This document shows positions 22,370 to 26,341 of a DNA stretch of 34,080 nt, one piece after another. The position numbers were made by a program, and so were the translations under genes. The notes beneath the pieces are model-generated. The model was not told the DNA's origin, ran no database searches, and worked only from the letters and a program-made list of their open reading frames with translations. The stretch comes from a virus (taxonomy: Duplodnaviria; Heunggongvirae; Uroviricota; Caudoviricetes). The DNA lies in the IMG/VR virus record IMGVR_UViG_648276671_000020, positions 1 through 34,080 of that record. One strand, 5' to 3'. The first letter of the stretch is position 1, and every line of letters begins with the position of its first letter.

Positions 22370-22897
22370 ATGCAGCATTTGATAAATATAACGGCAGGTA
22401 ATCCAAAAACGGTTGAACAATATCAATTGACAAAGGACTTTGATGTTGTCTGGTTTTTTTCAGAAGATGGTAAGAACTGGTACGAAGAACAAAAGTATTT
22501 TGCTGATGACACGATAAAAATAGCGTACGACAAAGATAATATCATCCGCTATGTGGAAAAGGATGTGACAGCTATCAGACCAGATGGATTAAGTGTGGTT
22601 GAAGTGGCGGATATTACTGCTAACCGACGGGCGGATATTTCAGGGAACTGGATGTTTAAGGACGGCAAAGTGATTAAACGCATTTATACGGCAGAGGAAT
22701 TGCAGCAGCAGGCAGAAAACCGGAAAGCCAGACTTCTTGCAGATGCTGAATCCGTAATTTTGCCGCTGGAACGCGCTGTCAGGCTGAATATGGCGACGGA
22801 TGAGGAGCGCACACGACTGGAAGCATGGGAACTCTACAGCGTTCTGGTCAGTCGTGTGGATCCTGCAAATCCCGAATGGCCGGAAATGCCACAATAA
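22370..22897 (+). CDS. G: Tail fiber assembly chaperone
   Basis: 175 aa immediately after H, the size and position of P2 gpG. Confidence 0.85.
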
Positions 22898-22931
22898 GTT
22901 GTATGAGCTCTGGTGTGAGCTTACATATCTA

Positions 22932-22973
22932 TGGCACAGAGTAAAGCCTGATCTGACAGTCCGCTCTGTGCCA
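22932..22973. repeat. 10-bp perfect inverted repeat (TGGCACAGAG ... CTCTGTGCCA) with 22-nt loop
   Basis: Seen directly, about 35 bp after the G stop. No T-run, so not a canonical intrinsic terminator. Confidence 0.4.
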
Positions 22974-23272
22974 AGATCGGACCTTAGGCTTCAGTAATTT
23001 GGTTAGCACAACCCCTTTGATAAACATACAGCTACAGTATTGCTTTTATAAGGAGCGTAGTTTCAATAGGACACCCCAAACGTTAGTCGGGAAAAGCCGA
23101 CTGAAAAAAAACTTGTGTGGACAAGTAGTGTCCATTTAATGCCATTTTTAGATTAAAATGTGCCATTTTGAGGGTATTCTTAAACGTGCATAACGTTCTG
23201 ATTTATCATACACAGAGCCTTATCATTTGAAACCATTCCGATGTACATCAAACAATGATTACAAGAGAAATT

Positions 23273-24790
23273 ATGACACCGCCAACCAAAATTGATACAT
23301 CAAGTCTACTTACCATATTGGGCGTTATTGCTGCTGTATGGGCCCTTATTACGCCAAACGCTCGACTACGTTTAAGGTTCTGCCTAGCGTGGTGGGATTG
23401 GGTAATTGTTGGGTTTGCATTCTTACTAAGCAATTATTTGGTGTTTGCACCGGCTTTAAAATCACTAGACTTATATTTTAGCTTTGGCCCCTGGAAATGG
23501 GGATTAGATAGTTCAAGTGCCGTATACCTGATATCACTCGCAGTTGCTATTTACATTTTATTTCGCTTAAAAAACCCTAAACTCTCAATTGGAAGAACAG
23601 GGATATTTCTAGAGTTAGTGGAAAATTTGCACCTTACTAAACGATACGACGATCTGGCACAATTGTTGGCACCTCAACTAGAAAAATTAATATCAATAAT
23701 TGATAGACCTGTGAAGAATCGACTTTGTGATAAGATAGCTAACAATCTCCGCATCTCTAATCGCGAGACAGCTGCTGAACATGCACATGAAGCATTGTTA
23801 AATATTGTCTCATCACCTGAACTTACCAATCACTTTGCACTTGCGCACCCATCCCTCTGCCTTGAGTTAATCAAGATCGAGCCAATAGTTCGTTCTGACT
23901 TTACTTCTAATTTTATCAGTGCATTACTTGGTTCACCTAACAGTCGTCTATATGTTGAGCTTAAAAATAATCTTAACGTTAGTCGAGGACATCGTTTATT
24001 GATTCCAAAAAACAACCGTATATTACATTTTTTCTTTTCCAATGCTAAGTTTGCAGCTGATTTAGCAATATACCGTGATATCGGTGACTATCTCTACTGG
24101 AGGTTAGATGAAGATGAAAAAATTATTGCTGCACTTAATAAGTCTTTAGGTTCCTATTACGATGCTTCAAAATATAAATGTCCTATTTACTCAGGTGTCA
24201 CGCTGTTTGAAATTATGGTTCATGAAGGTATTCACCAGGGTCTTCAGGATCATTTATGGTTGCATTACTATTCATATTTTGCAAGGAAAATTATAAAGAA
24301 TATGAATAGGCAATCGGATGAATATAGTGGTGAATGGGAAACACCTTTTCACTTCCTTCTCTGTCATTTATTTAGCGTCGCTACAGATTGGGCAGAACAA
24401 TGCGAATGGATAGATGAAAAGGAGATTCCTCAAGAAAATAAAGAAATAGATAATTTCGATCTTCATTATATTTCAAAAGAGGCTACCAAATTACTTGGTG
24501 CTATGCTGCAGTTGGTTATGCCTAATAAAAAACTCACCTTGAAATCTAAAAAACATATTCTTGATATAGTTGTATCTTGTTATATTAGATTGAAAAGGAA
24601 TAAAAAATTAAAAGACGTCGCTGACTCATTATTAATTTTCACCACTAGAGGCGAAGGTAATTCAGCACCGCCGCATTATCGTAGAGAACTTCTAGAAATA
24701 TTCAATACCCTTGATGATTATCGATTAAGAACTGATGCCCCGGAATTCCGAGCAGCTATAGAGTCTGCTATTCAAGCAAGGCCGAATTAG
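23273..24790 (+). CDS. Membrane-anchored protein, function unknown (3 N-terminal TM helices plus large soluble domain)
   Basis: Track ORF 23255..24790; ATG at 23273 is an alternative start. Hydrophobic segments near residues 15-33, 43-66 and 85-103, then about 400 aa I cannot place in any family. AT-rich; sits at the P2 Z/fun cargo locus. Confidence 0.65.
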   Translation: MTPPTKIDTSSLLTILGVIAAVWALITPNARLRLRFCLAWWDWVIVGFAFLLSNYLVFAPALKSLDLYFSFGPWKWGLDSSSAVYLISLAVAIYILFRLKNPKLSIGRTGIFLELVENLHLTKRYDDLAQLLAPQLEKLISIIDRPVKNRLCDKIANNLRISNRETAAEHAHEALLNIVSSPELTNHFALAHPSLCLELIKIEPIVRSDFTSNFISALLGSPNSRLYVELKNNLNVSRGHRLLIPKNNRILHFFFSNAKFAADLAIYRDIGDYLYWRLDEDEKIIAALNKSLGSYYDASKYKCPIYSGVTLFEIMVHEGIHQGLQDHLWLHYYSYFARKIIKNMNRQSDEYSGEWETPFHFLLCHLFSVATDWAEQCEWIDEKEIPQENKEIDNFDLHYISKEATKLLGAMLQLVMPNKKLTLKSKKHILDIVVSCYIRLKRNKKLKDVADSLLIFTTRGEGNSAPPHYRRELLEIFNTLDDYRLRTDAPEFRAAIESAIQARPN

Positions 24791-25064
24791 GTAAATCAAC
24801 CACCTGCATAGCGGGTGGTTTAGACATAGACCTCTAAGCATGCCTGAAAGCAGAGGTACCTCTAAGTTTCGATGTCTAGGTGTTGATCGGCTGTAATCTG
24901 GTAACCAGGTCAAGCTTAAAATTTTCTCAACATAAACAAGTAGTATTTCAAATATTGAACCATACTGACTCCCCCACTTTTTATAAGATTATGGAAATTT
25001 TTTGTACCAGTAAGTTCGAAAATTAGTGTTGTTCTCATCAGTCGTTATGAATAATTTTGAACTT

Positions 25065-25128
25065 CCGCTCCTCGCTCACAGCGGACCCTCAACTCAGCCA
25101 GCAATGTCCGCTGCTTGCCAGGAGCGGA
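25065..25128. other. Nested stem-loop between convergent cargo genes
   Basis: Outer arms TCCGCTCC/GGAGCGGA and inner arms CAGCGGAC/GTCCGCTG, each 8 bp, separated by 7-nt internal loops with a 20-nt apical loop. GC-rich inside an AT-rich island. Confidence 0.4.
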
Positions 25129-25165
25129 CGTAGTTTAATCTCTACTATGTTAATAAGTAATGATA

Positions 25166-25918
25166 TTAAATAAACTCATCATCAAGAAAGCCTGTTGATA
25201 AAAAGTTCTGAATGTGAAGATAAAAAGAATAACGTGTATCTTCATTTTTTTTCTTCGATGTGTTGAGTTCCGGCTTGAGATTGTAAATAAGATGAGACTC
25301 TATAAAGTCAAGTAATTCTATAGCTAATGATGTCGGACTAATCCAATCCAGTGAAATATAGTCTTTTCCATCATAAAACCATGGGGTGGCTCTATATATC
25401 CTCTTTTTCATATTATTATATTTGGGATCTAGCAACTTTAAGGCAGCCGAGTGACCGCCAATAAACCTTTTGGAGTTAACGGTTTTTCCGACATAAACAA
25501 TGTGTTCATTGGTATCATCCATATCAGAGCATGATATTAAATAGATTGGTAATGAGGGTTTGGGAGGAATGCCGATTTTTTTTTCGATTATCACCCTCTC
25601 CTTTTCATGAATAAAAATGGGAAGCTTTCCATTAAATTCACTCTTCACATTCCCCAAGAATGAATCTGTATTTTTCCTAGCTTCATGCAGTCCGACCCAG
25701 TTAAGACTATTGACCTGATGGAGAGGACAGCATTCCTGTATTGATAACCAAGCCTCCCAATCACTTGATGGATTATCACTACAGTTTTGGCCCGAAAATC
25801 TGTGTGAAAGGAATTTTCTCCCCTCGAACCAGGCTTGCAACGGAATATATATATCTGAAGTGTTCTGCTCGACTTCAATTAATGGACTATTAGTATCCAA
25901 ATTTATGCCTCCTTTCAT
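25166..25918 (-). CDS. Hypothetical protein with a C-terminal GIY-YIG-like nuclease motif
   Basis: 250 aa. PIYLISCSDMDDTNEHIVYVGKTVNSKRF resembles the GIY-X(10-15)-YVGK..KR core of GIY-YIG domains (compare UvrC VIYVGKAKDLKKR as I recall it). GGAGG-type RBS before the ATG; AT-rich. Confidence 0.55.
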   Translation of the reverse strand: MKGGINLDTNSPLIEVEQNTSDIYIPLQAWFEGRKFLSHRFSGQNCSDNPSSDWEAWLSIQECCPLHQVNSLNWVGLHEARKNTDSFLGNVKSEFNGKLPIFIHEKERVIIEKKIGIPPKPSLPIYLISCSDMDDTNEHIVYVGKTVNSKRFIGGHSAALKLLDPKYNNMKKRIYRATPWFYDGKDYISLDWISPTSLAIELLDFIESHLIYNLKPELNTSKKKNEDTRYSFYLHIQNFLSTGFLDDEFI

Positions 25919-26218
25919 TAAGTATTTGCATAAAAATATCTAAAAATAAGAAATTCTTTAATTAAGATTATAAGTTAAATATAAGTACCAATGAAGCTTT
26001 GAATGATTTCGCATCAATAAATTAATTCTAACACAATACCATATAATAACGAAAAATGTCACTGCTTGGTCGTTGAGGATATGACATTGCAATTAAAGAG
26101 AAAACCTTAACACACTATCTATAACGTCCGTTTCTCGCTCAAAGCAGACTGTCAGATTTGATAGCATTTGGGCTATGTAAATTGTCAGGCGGAAAATGAG
26201 TGAGTACAAATCAGGACA

Positions 26219-26245
26219 GGCGGGCGAATTGCCCGCCTTTTCTTT
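26219..26245 (+). terminator. Intrinsic terminator upstream of the FI late promoter region
   Basis: Hairpin GGCGGGC-GAATT-GCCCGCC followed by TTTTCTTT on the plus strand. Confidence 0.45.
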
Positions 26246-26341
26246 ATCTGTTGTTTCATCCACTGACCAGCCAGGTCAAATAGCGTCTCATGCTCTGCAC
26301 AACAGAAAATAGTTGCACCCATTAACCACGGAGTTAAACGG

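Follow-up and report, generated by a model that had tools for sequence, protein, structure and literature searches.

Self-contained cargo genes that carry their own promoter and terminator, known as 'morons', have been described for lambdoid phages. Upstream of sigma-70 promoters, UP elements and phased A/T-tract bends are found. In bacteria, Acinetobacter pdif modules (XerC/XerD) and integron cassettes (IntI, attC) are discrete modules that have short, partly palindromic end sites and form arrays. For P2-like coliphages, fun is flanked by inverted repeats allowing site-specific exchange, according to a review that cites Nilsson et al. 2004 (PMC8987985). The GenBank records of these repeats (Nilsson, Karlsson & Haggard-Ljungquist 2004, Mol Biol Evol 21:1; AJ512681 and AJ512685, dated 2004) annotate a 'left inverted repeat' at the variable slot that separates gene G from FI. 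How cargo and defence genes are turned over was left open by a 2026 survey of the P2 and P4 hotspots (PMC13586616).

The window analyzed here (34,080 nucleotides, the IMG/VR virus record IMGVR_UViG_648276671_000020) has the same left and right repeats as these Z/fun regions, with cargo in between, and holds two cassettes in the arrangement L..R-19 nt-L..R, where L and R are the 24-bp sites described below. A first-pass annotation of the window had listed together a perfect 10-bp inverted repeat, a palindrome and repeated boxes upstream of the first cargo gene, and had read the boxes and palindrome as regulator binding sites for that gene. A check of the sequence found all three motifs in place, and they are two separate entities (the inverted repeat on one side, the palindrome and boxes on the other) with no single regulatory unit. 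The account that we consider probable, with considerable room for doubt, is that the inverted repeat is a hotspot boundary together with an L site, and that the boxes are the upstream part of a cassette promoter, either of the UP-element type or a region bound by nucleoid proteins.

The inverted repeat lies in the P2 backbone

The left side of the slot holds the following features, listed with the terminator at its far end.

22370 to 22897, plus strand: gene G, tail-fibre assembly protein (Pfam Caudo_TAP, E = 4e-34), the last late-operon gene before the cargo slot
22870 to 22982, unstranded: P2 backbone segment, the 'left inverted repeat' as annotated for the Z region, which contains the 10-bp inverted repeat
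22932 to 22973, unstranded: perfect 10-bp inverted repeat, whose right arm (22964-22973) covers the centre of the L site
22959 to 22982, plus strand: L site forming cassette 1's left junction, GTCCGCT-CTGTGCCAAG-ATCGGAC, a 24-bp hairpin
26218 to 26238, plus strand: intrinsic terminator upstream of FI, a 9-bp stem with 7 G-C pairs followed by TTTCTTTATC

The two arms of the inverted repeat, TGGCACAGAG (22932-22941) and CTCTGTGCCA (22964-22973), have 22 nt between them. Among shuffles, 0.9% contained a perfect 10-bp inverted repeat whose loop was 3-30 nt long (all chance frequencies given here come from 2000 dinucleotide-preserving shuffles of 22932-23272), and the repeat is clearly non-random. 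The first-pass annotation had grouped it with the boxes upstream of the cargo gene; it turns out to be P2 backbone. Gene G is 88-92% identical at the DNA level to P2-like phages, and the segment 22870-22982 aligns base for base to the repeat_region at positions 3-115 of AJ512685 and AJ512681. Across 66 distinct P2-like sequences the segment is kept as far as 22973, and in patches as far as 22985, with both 10-bp arms conserved whatever cargo follows downstream. P2 homology spans the inverted repeat and ends at 22982-22985, and the P2-like contigs begin to diverge after GTGCCA. Both arms are nearly invariant in these 66 sequences and give no informative covariation signal; the RNA fold of the repeat has a free energy of -23.4 kcal/mol (z = -2.8). 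The repeat belongs to the conserved left edge of the P2 'Z/fun' cargo slot and, as compared to the repeats of Nilsson 2004, the 10-bp hairpin is merely an internal feature of the left repeat.

A role of the inverted repeat as intrinsic terminator of the late operon was considered and rejected: the hairpin is stable, but AAGATCGGACC lies downstream of it, without a U-tract. A plus-strand terminator scan between G and FI returned no site before 26218, and the terminator at 26218-26238 is the sole canonical one found in this interval.

L and R sites mark the cassette ends

Two further features define the cassette ends.

25063 to 25129, plus strand: junction between the cassettes, made of an R site (25063-25086), a 19-nt spacer and a second L site (25106-25129)
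26126 to 26216, unstranded: R site (26126-26149) opening the 'right inverted repeat' annotated for the P2 Z region, equal to positions 1255-1345 of AJ512685

The L site consists of 7-bp inverted arms (GTCCGCT and AGCGGAC) around a 10-nt centre, CTGTGCCAAG; the right arm of the copy at 22959 differs from the consensus AGCGGAC by one G-to-T change at 22977. The R site is an inverted relative of L with the centre CCTCGCTCAC, and reads TTCCGCT-CCTCGCTCAC-AGCGGAC in the junction between the cassettes (25063-25086), where the composite fold of 25063-25129 reaches -35.2 kcal/mol (z = -5.1). On a larger scale, 22951-22986 and 26122-26157 form an inverted repeat with 78% complementarity.

Homology breakpoints coincide with these sites. 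Cassette 1 spans about 22974-25078, and its homology begins at L in four unrelated contexts (CS18F, Leclercia, Pectobacterium, and the contig of locus L008). At the other end, the homology shared by the window, Pectobacterium and locus L008 stops exactly after the R site, and Leclercia homology to the window breaks after CTCGCTCA at the right R site. Outside the window, four contexts have cassette 1 ending exactly at L and R. Junctions after GTGCCA (in L) and CGCTCA (in R) recur in P2 contigs, in Leclercia and around a recombinase gene (see below). Among 92 P2-like contigs, L on the left with R on the right is the commonest pattern (34 contigs), counted by a strict match, under which many contigs show one of the two sites only. 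Comparable cassette junctions were found in 716 of the 5426 complete E. coli genomes.

Short inverted arms, an asymmetric centre and precise homology junctions are what is expected of tyrosine-recombinase core sites, and the sites agree in sequence and position with the annotated left and right inverted repeats of the Z region between G and FI. L and R are most likely recombination sites rather than operators of the cargo gene, as judged from sequence comparison; they bracket each cargo cassette and mark where cassettes join the backbone. The 24-bp L/R cores, their copies between cassettes and outside P2, and the link to a 200-aa recombinase may or may not figure in Nilsson 2004.

Cargo genes

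23273 to 24790, plus strand: cargo gene 1, 505 aa, a helical N-terminal segment (read as membrane-spanning) followed by an all-helical domain
24798 to 24820, unstranded: hairpin just past the stop of gene 1, fold -18.1 kcal/mol (z = -3.7), each strand carrying a weak U-tract
25166 to 25918, minus strand: cargo gene 2 of cassette 2, 250 aa, matching phrog_16890 only

Cassette 1 codes only for the 505-aa helical protein, which has no known domain, and its neighbors differ in every context. The first-pass annotation had taken the gene to be 511 aa long from an ATG at 23255, which the comparison corrects: the conserved start is the ATG at 23273 (505 aa), AGAGAAATTATG is nearly invariant whereas the Providencia homologue has lost the upstream ATG, and the NCBI PGAP annotation of strain PSJ-12 starts at the equivalent of 23273. 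The protein belongs with phrog_13820 (a PHROG family of unknown function) and has 161 homologues across Proteobacteria; it has no match in Pfam, PADLOC or NCBIfam and no sequence homologue in the PDB. Its AlphaFold2 model (pLDDT 83, pTM 0.77) gave no fold match at E <= 0.001 against PDB and BFVD, where only generic helical-repeat matches appeared (TM-score <= 0.28). Cargo gene 2 also follows cassette 1 in a Leclercia locus (L006).

The G+C content of the cargo is 33-40%, versus about 50-59% in the backbone. With the lambdoid-phage morons, cassette 1 shares a single low-G+C gene, its own conserved predicted promoter, a hairpin after the stop (the terminator scan gave a terminator-like match on the minus strand at 24814..24800) and a position between two late operons. 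Unlike morons, the cargo unit here has precise repeated hairpin sites at both ends, and identical ends occur in other types of elements.

A conserved predicted promoter in the upstream region

22983 to 23272, plus strand: cassette-borne upstream region that travels with the 505-aa gene, as seen in alignments of homologues
23086 to 23112, plus strand: hairpin AGTCGG-GAAAAG-CCGACT (23086-23103) followed by A8 (23105-23112), fold -11.8 kcal/mol (z = -3.9)
23118 to 23134, unstranded: palindrome TGGACA-N5-TGTCCA, arms 23118-23123 and 23129-23134
23129 to 23169, plus strand: three related boxes, TGTCCATTT (23129-23137), TGCCATTTT (23140-23148) and TGCCATTTT (23161-23169), the latter two called box 1 and box 2
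23180 to 23209, plus strand: predicted sigma-70 promoter of cargo gene 1, -35 TTAAAC (23180-23185), 18 nt, -10 TATCAT (23204-23209)

The upstream region has been transferred together with the gene in an E. coli island and in Leclercia, Pectobacterium, Serratia, Enterobacter, Edwardsiella and Providencia contexts; the settings outside P2 include islands and a lambdoid prophage, among others. In Klebsiella phage-plasmids the homologues have an unrelated upstream region.

In eight of nine homologous upstream regions, the -10 hexamer sits at the same alignment column with a -35 hexamer at 17-19 nt; TATnAT is invariant, and TTAAC nearly so. Conservation scores are 0.91 for the -10 hexamer and 0.97 from the Shine-Dalgarno sequence to the ATG, as compared to a background of 0.78. 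The spacer of the window's promoter falls within 16-19 nt; its -35 is weak, with 4/6 matches, which is why a generic promoter scan missed the TTAAAC-TATCAT pair. In CS18F (E. coli), a 2-nt insertion lengthens the spacer to 20 nt. This promoter would drive the 505-aa gene from the ATG at 23273, with transcription starting near 23216. Since the terminator scan found none between G and cargo gene 1, late read-through is also possible.

Other readings of the same stretch fared less well. A weaker promoter (TTGAGG at 23168-23173, 17 nt, TAACGT at 23191-23196) is present in fewer homologues, and the candidate returned by the generic scan (TTGAAA-18-AACAAT, 23227-23256) is not conserved and overlaps the upstream ATG. 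Small ORFs (candidates of 20-46 aa) are broken by indels in CS18F and by the insertion in Serratia. An Rfam scan of 22800-26400 at E <= 1 gave two chance-level matches only, both in the coding region.

Palindrome and boxes

As the first-pass annotation had proposed, the cis-regulatory DNA of the cargo gene does contain the palindrome and the boxes, which fall between about -40 and -95 relative to the conserved predicted promoter. Conservation in homologues differs among the motifs. Box 2 (0.86 versus the background of 0.78) sits inside a conserved block directly upstream of the -35. Box 1 scores 0.79 and lies in a stretch of 21 bp that is absent from CS18F with the cargo gene intact, and the arms of the palindrome score 0.69-0.74, below the background. 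Both palindrome arms are intact in the window, CS18F, Pectobacterium and Serratia, one has a mismatch in Edwardsiella, and the palindrome is altered or absent in Enterobacter, Providencia and locus L030; in locus L032 an unrelated palindrome with 6-bp arms and a 5-nt loop occupies the same place. A palindrome of 6-bp arms and a 5-nt spacer turned up in 9.2% of shuffles and is by itself compatible with chance. The copies of TGCCATTTT are 21 bp apart from start to start and extend to 12 nt at 92% identity. The motif was observed three times in the window versus 0.68 expected, and a 9-bp direct repeat within 30 bp arose in 3.0% of shuffles, which makes the repeated box marginal with respect to chance.

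These data bear on several explanations. We consider most probable, as part of the two-entity account, that cassette 1 has a promoter region of its own, whose upstream part consists of the palindrome and the TG(T)CCATTT boxes. With positions of about -50, -72 and -83, the boxes have T-tracts spaced about 10.5-11 and 21 bp, i.e. in helical phase. They most likely serve as a bent, A/T-rich element resembling UP elements, or as a region bound by nucleoid proteins; this putative role is drawn from T-tract spacing only. The likeness to UP elements and phased A/T-tract bends is one of position and composition only (A/T-rich at -40 to -85, phased T-tracts), and the boxes have no close match to the UP-element consensus. 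Such boxes would tune a promoter able to work whatever the host element, which is what a self-contained 'moron' should have.

Identity in the upstream region is about equal to identity at third codon positions, so that neutral evolution could account for most of the conservation seen, and the boxes may be functionless. A full version of this explanation, in which the doubled box is left over from slippage or duplication of 21 bp and the palindrome arose by chance in A/T-rich, horizontally acquired DNA, seems to us rather unlikely, though it deserves serious weight. It is in keeping with the palindrome frequency among shuffles, with the 21-bp indel that occurs naturally in CS18F, and with the 14/21 identical positions of the two 21-bp units (manual count), as expected of an old tandem duplication. 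It is at odds with the retention of box 2 and of the block up to the -35 even where the proteins are 70-81% identical.

The same conservation of box 2, which extends to an adjoining GAGnGTATT, can be read as a sign that the boxes and/or the palindrome are operators of a sequence-specific host transcription factor switching the cargo on or off; this factor would have to be host-encoded because the cassette encodes no DNA-binding protein (none, cognate to these motifs, was found in cassette 1). Three similar boxes and an inverted copy, TGGACA, packed into 52 bp with spacings of 11 and 21 bp fit such operators, as does the rarity of so close a 9-bp repeat among the shuffles. We nevertheless regard them as unlikely. 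The gene stays intact where box 1 is deleted, the palindrome is less conserved than its surroundings and is replaced in locus L032, the region evolves at about the synonymous rate, and the Klebsiella homologues do with other upstream DNA. By eye, the consensus sequences of DnaA, CRP, PurR and IHF gave only a DnaA-like site with one mismatch and partial matches, all of a kind expected by chance, and we know of no E. coli factor whose consensus is recognizable by inspection in the boxes or the palindrome. In the sequences compared, nothing points to a dedicated regulator such as the first-pass annotation had suggested, given the loss of box 1 in CS18F, the poor conservation of the palindrome and the overall pace of change of the region.

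The more specific proposal of control by the prophage regulators C, Cox or Ogr, which would couple cargo expression to the P2 life cycle, draws on the location in a P2-like prophage downstream of the late operon. It also draws on the known binding of P2-type C repressors to direct repeats spaced by some two turns of the helix. But the palindrome and boxes travel with the 505-aa gene into elements outside P2 (islands, a lambdoid prophage), which makes control by C, Cox or Ogr unlikely, in our judgment extremely so. Moreover, the operator-like repeat of the prophage itself, CCTATATAGG, occurs only at 1356 and 1390 with up to one mismatch allowed. The Ogr-type dyad consensus, TGT-N12-ACA, is absent from 23000-23300, which is a weak test, as this consensus also missed the window's own late promoters.

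Finally, the hairpins could act as RNA. The AGTCGG..CCGACT hairpin and the palindrome, with their A8 and T-rich flanks, may insulate the cassette (the palindrome and the T8 on the minus strand forming a weak bidirectional terminator), or may stabilize a late read-through mRNA. The AGTCGG hairpin folds better than its shuffles and is kept in five homologues; in Enterobacter a base change leaves a U-G wobble, as would suit a stem in plus-strand RNA; T8 comes 6 nt after the palindrome on the minus strand, and the palindrome of locus L032 has the same geometry at the same place. We hold this explanation to be quite improbable: the terminator scan found nothing at the hairpin or the palindrome, the U-tracts do not adjoin the stems, the palindrome folds are not significant (z-scores of -1.25 and -1.05), and in Serratia an insertion of at least ~100 bp is tolerated between the hairpin and the distal region.

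A tyrosine recombinase gene beside L/R cassette arrays

Arrays of L/R cassettes are also present in E. coli and Leclercia islands, where they adjoin a gene for a 200-aa tyrosine recombinase. The settings of this gene include genomic islands, prophages and plasmids. In each of the six recombinase loci examined, L and/or R sites of one orientation lie within 9 kb, as compared to no L/R site in 119 kb of control loci, and the recombinase gene itself is bounded by half-sites, an R half-site at one end and an L half-site at the other. The recombinase was not found in the window or in deposited P2-like phages, so it would need to act in trans.

The recombinase was compared with known families. With the integron-integrase model (cut-off 265) it reaches 15.9 bits, which rejects an IntI-type integrase, and with Xer models (cut-offs 220-335) at most 58 bits. 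Scores against FimB/E-type invertase models are also far under the cut-offs, with no likeness of the core sites by inspection.

As in pdif modules and integron cassettes, identical ends occur in different replicons and a tyrosine recombinase gene lies beside some of the arrays. The differences are that L and R have by inspection no similarity to dif or to the attC core (of the core motifs RYYYAAC and GTTRRRY, no GTTRRRY is visible in the sites), that the recombinase has only 200 aa, and that each L/R cassette has its own promoter. Also, most neighboring L/R cassettes are separated by two sites and a spacer of 18-19 nt (15 nt in Pectobacterium), not by one site.

Together, the L/R sites and the recombinase-associated arrays suggest a testable mechanism of cassette exchange. 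L and R may be the recombination sites of an undescribed Enterobacterales system run by the 200-aa tyrosine recombinase, which consists of the catalytic domain only (WP_001305361.1, CFT073), with the P2 slot served in trans and with exchange of L with L and of R with R; from the sequences compared, we put the likelihood of this at somewhat below even. Under such a scheme, the slot between G and FI, which has no enzyme of its own, would be a docking site, and promoter-bearing cassettes (including the two in the window) would move between islands and phages. Full-text literature searches for the site sequences, ETEC_3214 and WP_001305361 returned nothing relevant.

Implications for cargo exchange in P2-like phages

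Taken alone, the palindrome, boxes and inverted repeat change little, as they amount to a routine cis-regulatory region and a repeat that had been annotated earlier. The boundary sites are of greater consequence: cassettes in P2-like prophages and in unrelated islands are surrounded by the same 24-bp L and R, with breakpoints at fixed positions within the sites. If the proposed scheme is true, it would show concretely how cargo and defence genes are turned over at the P2 hotspot. If the enzyme acts on L and R, this would account for the exchange of ready-to-express cargo, often candidate anti-phage genes, between P2 phages and chromosomal islands, and the sites and the enzyme would make up a simple natural system of cassette exchange.

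The cargo slot of the prophage

This window is a prophage of the P2-like (Peduovirus) group. The 3.4-kb interval between its genes G and FI has a G+C content of 33–40%, versus ~50–59% in the flanking genes, and is the 'Z/fun' slot, the variable region of P2-like phages. P2 relatives are homologous over 22700–22985 and again from ~26123. Neither ORF in the interval has a match in Pfam, PADLOC or NCBIfam.

Features of the window
1051–1344, minus strand: C-like repressor gene
1466–1753: cox-like gene
22370–22897: gene G, tail-fibre assembly (Pfam)
22932–41 and 22964–73: arms TGGCACAGAG and CTCTGTGCCA of the 10-bp inverted repeat
22959–82: L site, GTCCGCT-CTGTGCCAAG-A(G)CGGAC, overlapping the right arm of the inverted repeat
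23118–23 and 23129–34: palindrome, TGGACA, 5 nt, TGTCCA
23129–37: third related box, TGTCCATTT, newly added
23140 and 23161: repeated boxes 1 and 2, TGCCATTTT
23255/23273–24790, plus strand: first ORF of the interval
25063–86: R site, TTCCGCT-CCTCGCTCAC-AGCGGAC
25106–29: second L site
25166–25918, minus strand: second ORF of the interval
26126–49: second R site
26342–27532: gene FI, tail sheath (Pfam)

All motifs flagged by the first-pass annotation upstream of the cargo gene are present where it placed them. Of 2000 dinucleotide-preserving shuffles of 22932–23272, 0.9% contained a perfect inverted repeat of 10 bp (loop of 3–30 nt), 3.0% a direct repeat of 9 bp within 30 bp, and 9.2% a palindrome whose 6-bp arms are separated by 5 nt. 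A third exact copy of TGCCATTTT (32687–32695, minus strand, near the start of ORF 32663–32944) is probably a chance occurrence. The cargo product, previously given as 511 aa, is most likely a 505-aa protein starting at ATG 23273, since the PGAP start in E. coli strain PSJ-12 is the equivalent codon, a Providencia homologue has no upstream ATG, and AGAGAAATTATG is almost invariant among homologues.

The inverted repeat and the cassette borders

The 10-bp inverted repeat had been assigned to the control region of the cargo gene, but it belongs to the P2 backbone, as a separate and already annotated feature that is conserved whatever cargo follows. Positions 22870–22982 align without gaps to the 'left inverted repeat' of the Z-region records AJ512685 and AJ512681, and 26126–26216 align to their 'right inverted repeat'. 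A set of 119 IMG/VR contigs, collected with the end of G as anchor, includes 66 distinct P2-like left junctions. Both arms keep their sequence in these, every one of the ten pairs being able to form in 50–66 of the 66, and divergence sets in after GTGCCA at 22973, independent of cargo. As RNA the repeat would fold with −23.4 kcal/mol (z = −2.8); it was considered as a late-operon terminator and rejected, because no U-tract lies 3′ of it and the plus-strand terminator scan found nothing before 26218. Directly 3′ of G (22901–22921), a direct repeat GTATGAGCT / GTGTGAGCT lies at a 12-nt indel polymorphism that looks like slippage between the repeats, with CTGGTGTGAGCT missing from several P2-like contigs.

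The L hairpin at 22959–82 is perfect in PSJ-12 and has one mismatch in the window; R has the same arms as L around a different, roughly inverted centre. The order in the window (L, 505-aa gene, R, a 19-nt spacer, L, 250-aa gene on the minus strand, R) therefore defines two cassettes. In 92 P2-like contigs with both anchors, strict matching gave L on the left and R on the right as the commonest border pattern (both in 34, L only in 28, R only in 17). Homology of cassette 1 begins at L in E. coli CS18F, Leclercia tamurae, Pectobacterium polonicum and a metagenome contig, and ends immediately past R in Pectobacterium and the metagenome contig, so that the ends of this cassette are exact. A passage in a review citing Nilsson et al. 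2004 (PMC8987985) describes fun as flanked by inverted repeats enabling site-specific exchange, and the boundary repeats are thus already known in principle. In a Serratia marcescens P2-like prophage (L022, 3484–5518), an R-spacer-L junction precedes the same cassette between V-like and S-like genes, in opposite orientation to the flanking phage genes, and the docking sites are thus not confined to the G–FI slot.

A predicted promoter region carried by the cassette

The 290 bp from L to the ATG accompany the 505-aa gene into an E. coli island (adjoining an inovirus-Gp2-family gene, an IS30 element and a restriction enzyme), a Leclercia island, a Pectobacterium region with TraC and IS3, another position in the Serratia P2-like prophage, an Enterobacter island with antirestriction, RadC and CbtA genes, an Edwardsiella prophage-like region, Providencia (beside a umuDC-like gene pair with Peptidase_S24 and IMS domains), and a contig with a phage lysis cassette, KilA-N and lysozyme genes. 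Upstream of the Klebsiella phage-plasmid homologues the sequence is unrelated.

When nine homologous upstream regions (protein identity 70–99%) are aligned, the predicted −10 (TATnAT, 23204–09) is invariant and the predicted −35 (TTAAC, 23180–84) almost so, with an 18-nt spacer in most. A hexamer scan recovered this candidate sigma-70 promoter (23180–23209) in 8 of the 9 sequences and a weaker second candidate, TTGAGG-17 nt-TAACGT, in fewer.

Conservation in the nine-region alignment (column identity to the window)
Background, 23086–23272: 0.78
−10 hexamer: 0.91
Shine-Dalgarno to ATG: 0.97
Box 2: 0.86
Box 1: 0.79
Palindrome arms: 0.69–0.74

Judged from these sequences, the palindrome and boxes are part of the cassette's own predicted promoter region, so their proposed location in a control region for the cargo gene holds, while nothing indicates a dedicated regulator. 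Their conservation is mixed: box 2 exceeds background, whereas the palindrome arms fall below it and exactly the 21 bp with box 1 are absent in CS18F, where the gene is annotated as intact. One relative (L032) has a TAGTGA-N5-TCACTA palindrome in place of TGGACA-N5-TGTCCA. Action of a sequence-specific host regulator on this region is doubtful. For seven relatives, identity to the window over the proximal 160 bp (65–96%) is similar to identity at third codon positions of the gene (59–95%), which implies weak overall constraint; that the motifs have no function is a serious rival, albeit an unlikely one.

Most likely, the cassette is a self-contained expression unit, the predicted promoter (inferred start near 23216) driving the cargo gene in the lysogen; with no terminator in between, transcripts of the late operon may also read through into the gene. 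The boxes are placed at about −50, −72 and −83, with T-tracts spaced by ~11 and 21 bp, and from position and composition they may form a phased, A/T-rich element that assists or adjusts the promoter from upstream, perhaps via the alpha subunit of RNA polymerase or via nucleoid proteins with a preference for bent, A/T-rich DNA of horizontal origin. For the AGTCGG..CCGACT hairpin (z = −3.9) and the A8 run of the upstream region, a role at the RNA level as insulator or stabiliser is a minor and improbable rival. Control by P2 C, Cox or Ogr, raised in the first-pass annotation, is very unlikely indeed, because the cassette is portable, the prophage's operator-like repeat CCTATATAGG is found only at 1356 and 1390, and TGT-N12-ACA was not found nearby (a weak test). 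The two exact CCTATATAGG copies lie in the switch region (1345–1465) between the C-like and cox-like genes and probably serve as operator for this immunity type.

A candidate recombinase for the L and R sites

Of 5426 complete E. coli genomes, 716 carry R-spacer-L junctions resembling 25050–25140, and L/R sites also bracket cassettes in unrelated islands, prophages and a plasmid. The L/R arrays of CFT073 and DA33135 contain a 200-aa 'site-specific integrase', and in Leclercia the window's two cassettes are directly followed by the same recombinase (97% identical; 97–99% in three loci), whose gene is present in 863 of the 5426 genomes. In each of the six recombinase loci fetched (CFT073, DA33135, Leclercia, a Rac-like prophage of E. 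coli 042, a plasmid, and PK8261), L and/or R sites in a common orientation lie within 9 kb; 119 kb of control loci contained none.

The recombinase gene is itself bounded by an R and an L half-site: conservation begins inside an R-type site, between CTCGCTCA and TAAGGGAC, ~60 nt before the ATG, and ends inside an L-type site, between CCCTGTGCCA and GAAGCGGAC, shortly past the stop codon. In Leclercia, cassette 2 sequence common with the window changes to the recombinase leader exactly after CTCGCTCA. These breakpoints are those in P2 (after GTGCCA in L, after CGCTCA in R), and the upstream hairpin CAGGGCTGC-AACA-GCAGCCCTG, which abuts the TGCCA of the recombinase-side L site, parallels the 10-bp inverted repeat of P2. 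As read from the sequence, the protein keeps tyrosine recombinase catalytic residues (LRGCD, K in QQKTG, HSLRR, GHKK, VRYLG), and it scores far under the cut-offs of Xer, integron-integrase and invertase models. Since it was not found in deposited P2-like phages, any action of the enzyme on the P2 slot would be in trans. For exchange at P2 and P4 defence hotspots, a survey from 2026 considers transposons and homologous or illegitimate recombination without choosing among them, and does not mention the L/R sites (PMC13586616). From the sequence evidence, and at somewhat under an even chance, the sites and the putatively linked recombinase may constitute a cassette-exchange system, with putative recombination at L and R.

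The cargo proteins

For the 505-aa protein, which falls in a PHROG family of unknown function, 161 homologues were found in the Proteobacteria. Its AlphaFold2 model is confident and all-helical (pLDDT 83), with an N-terminal helical segment that may be read as membrane-spanning; it had no meaningful fold match in the structure search and no sequence relative in PDB. Autoregulation is unlikely because the protein gives no hint of DNA binding. The 250-aa gene, in its own L..R cassette and transcribed towards cassette 1, matches only phrog_16890, of unknown function.

Both cassettes, ~99% identical to the window, lie in a non-P2 island of Leclercia tamurae (NZ_JAMHKS010000063, 3687–7519), an array that points to a putative recent transfer between island and P2 slot. 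The P2 remnant in PSJ-12 (NZ_AP027622, 6171–15690) is strongly degraded, most of its structural genes being annotated only in pieces, yet both cargo genes are intact and 99.5% identical to the window, which suggests selection for the cargo after prophage decay. The cargo family (505–540 aa) is widespread in Proteobacteria, always in mobile-element or defence-like neighbourhoods (for instance beside SIR2_2 in Edwardsiella and beside DUF2971 and antirestriction genes in Enterobacter), and the 505-aa gene is a candidate anti-phage or exclusion gene.
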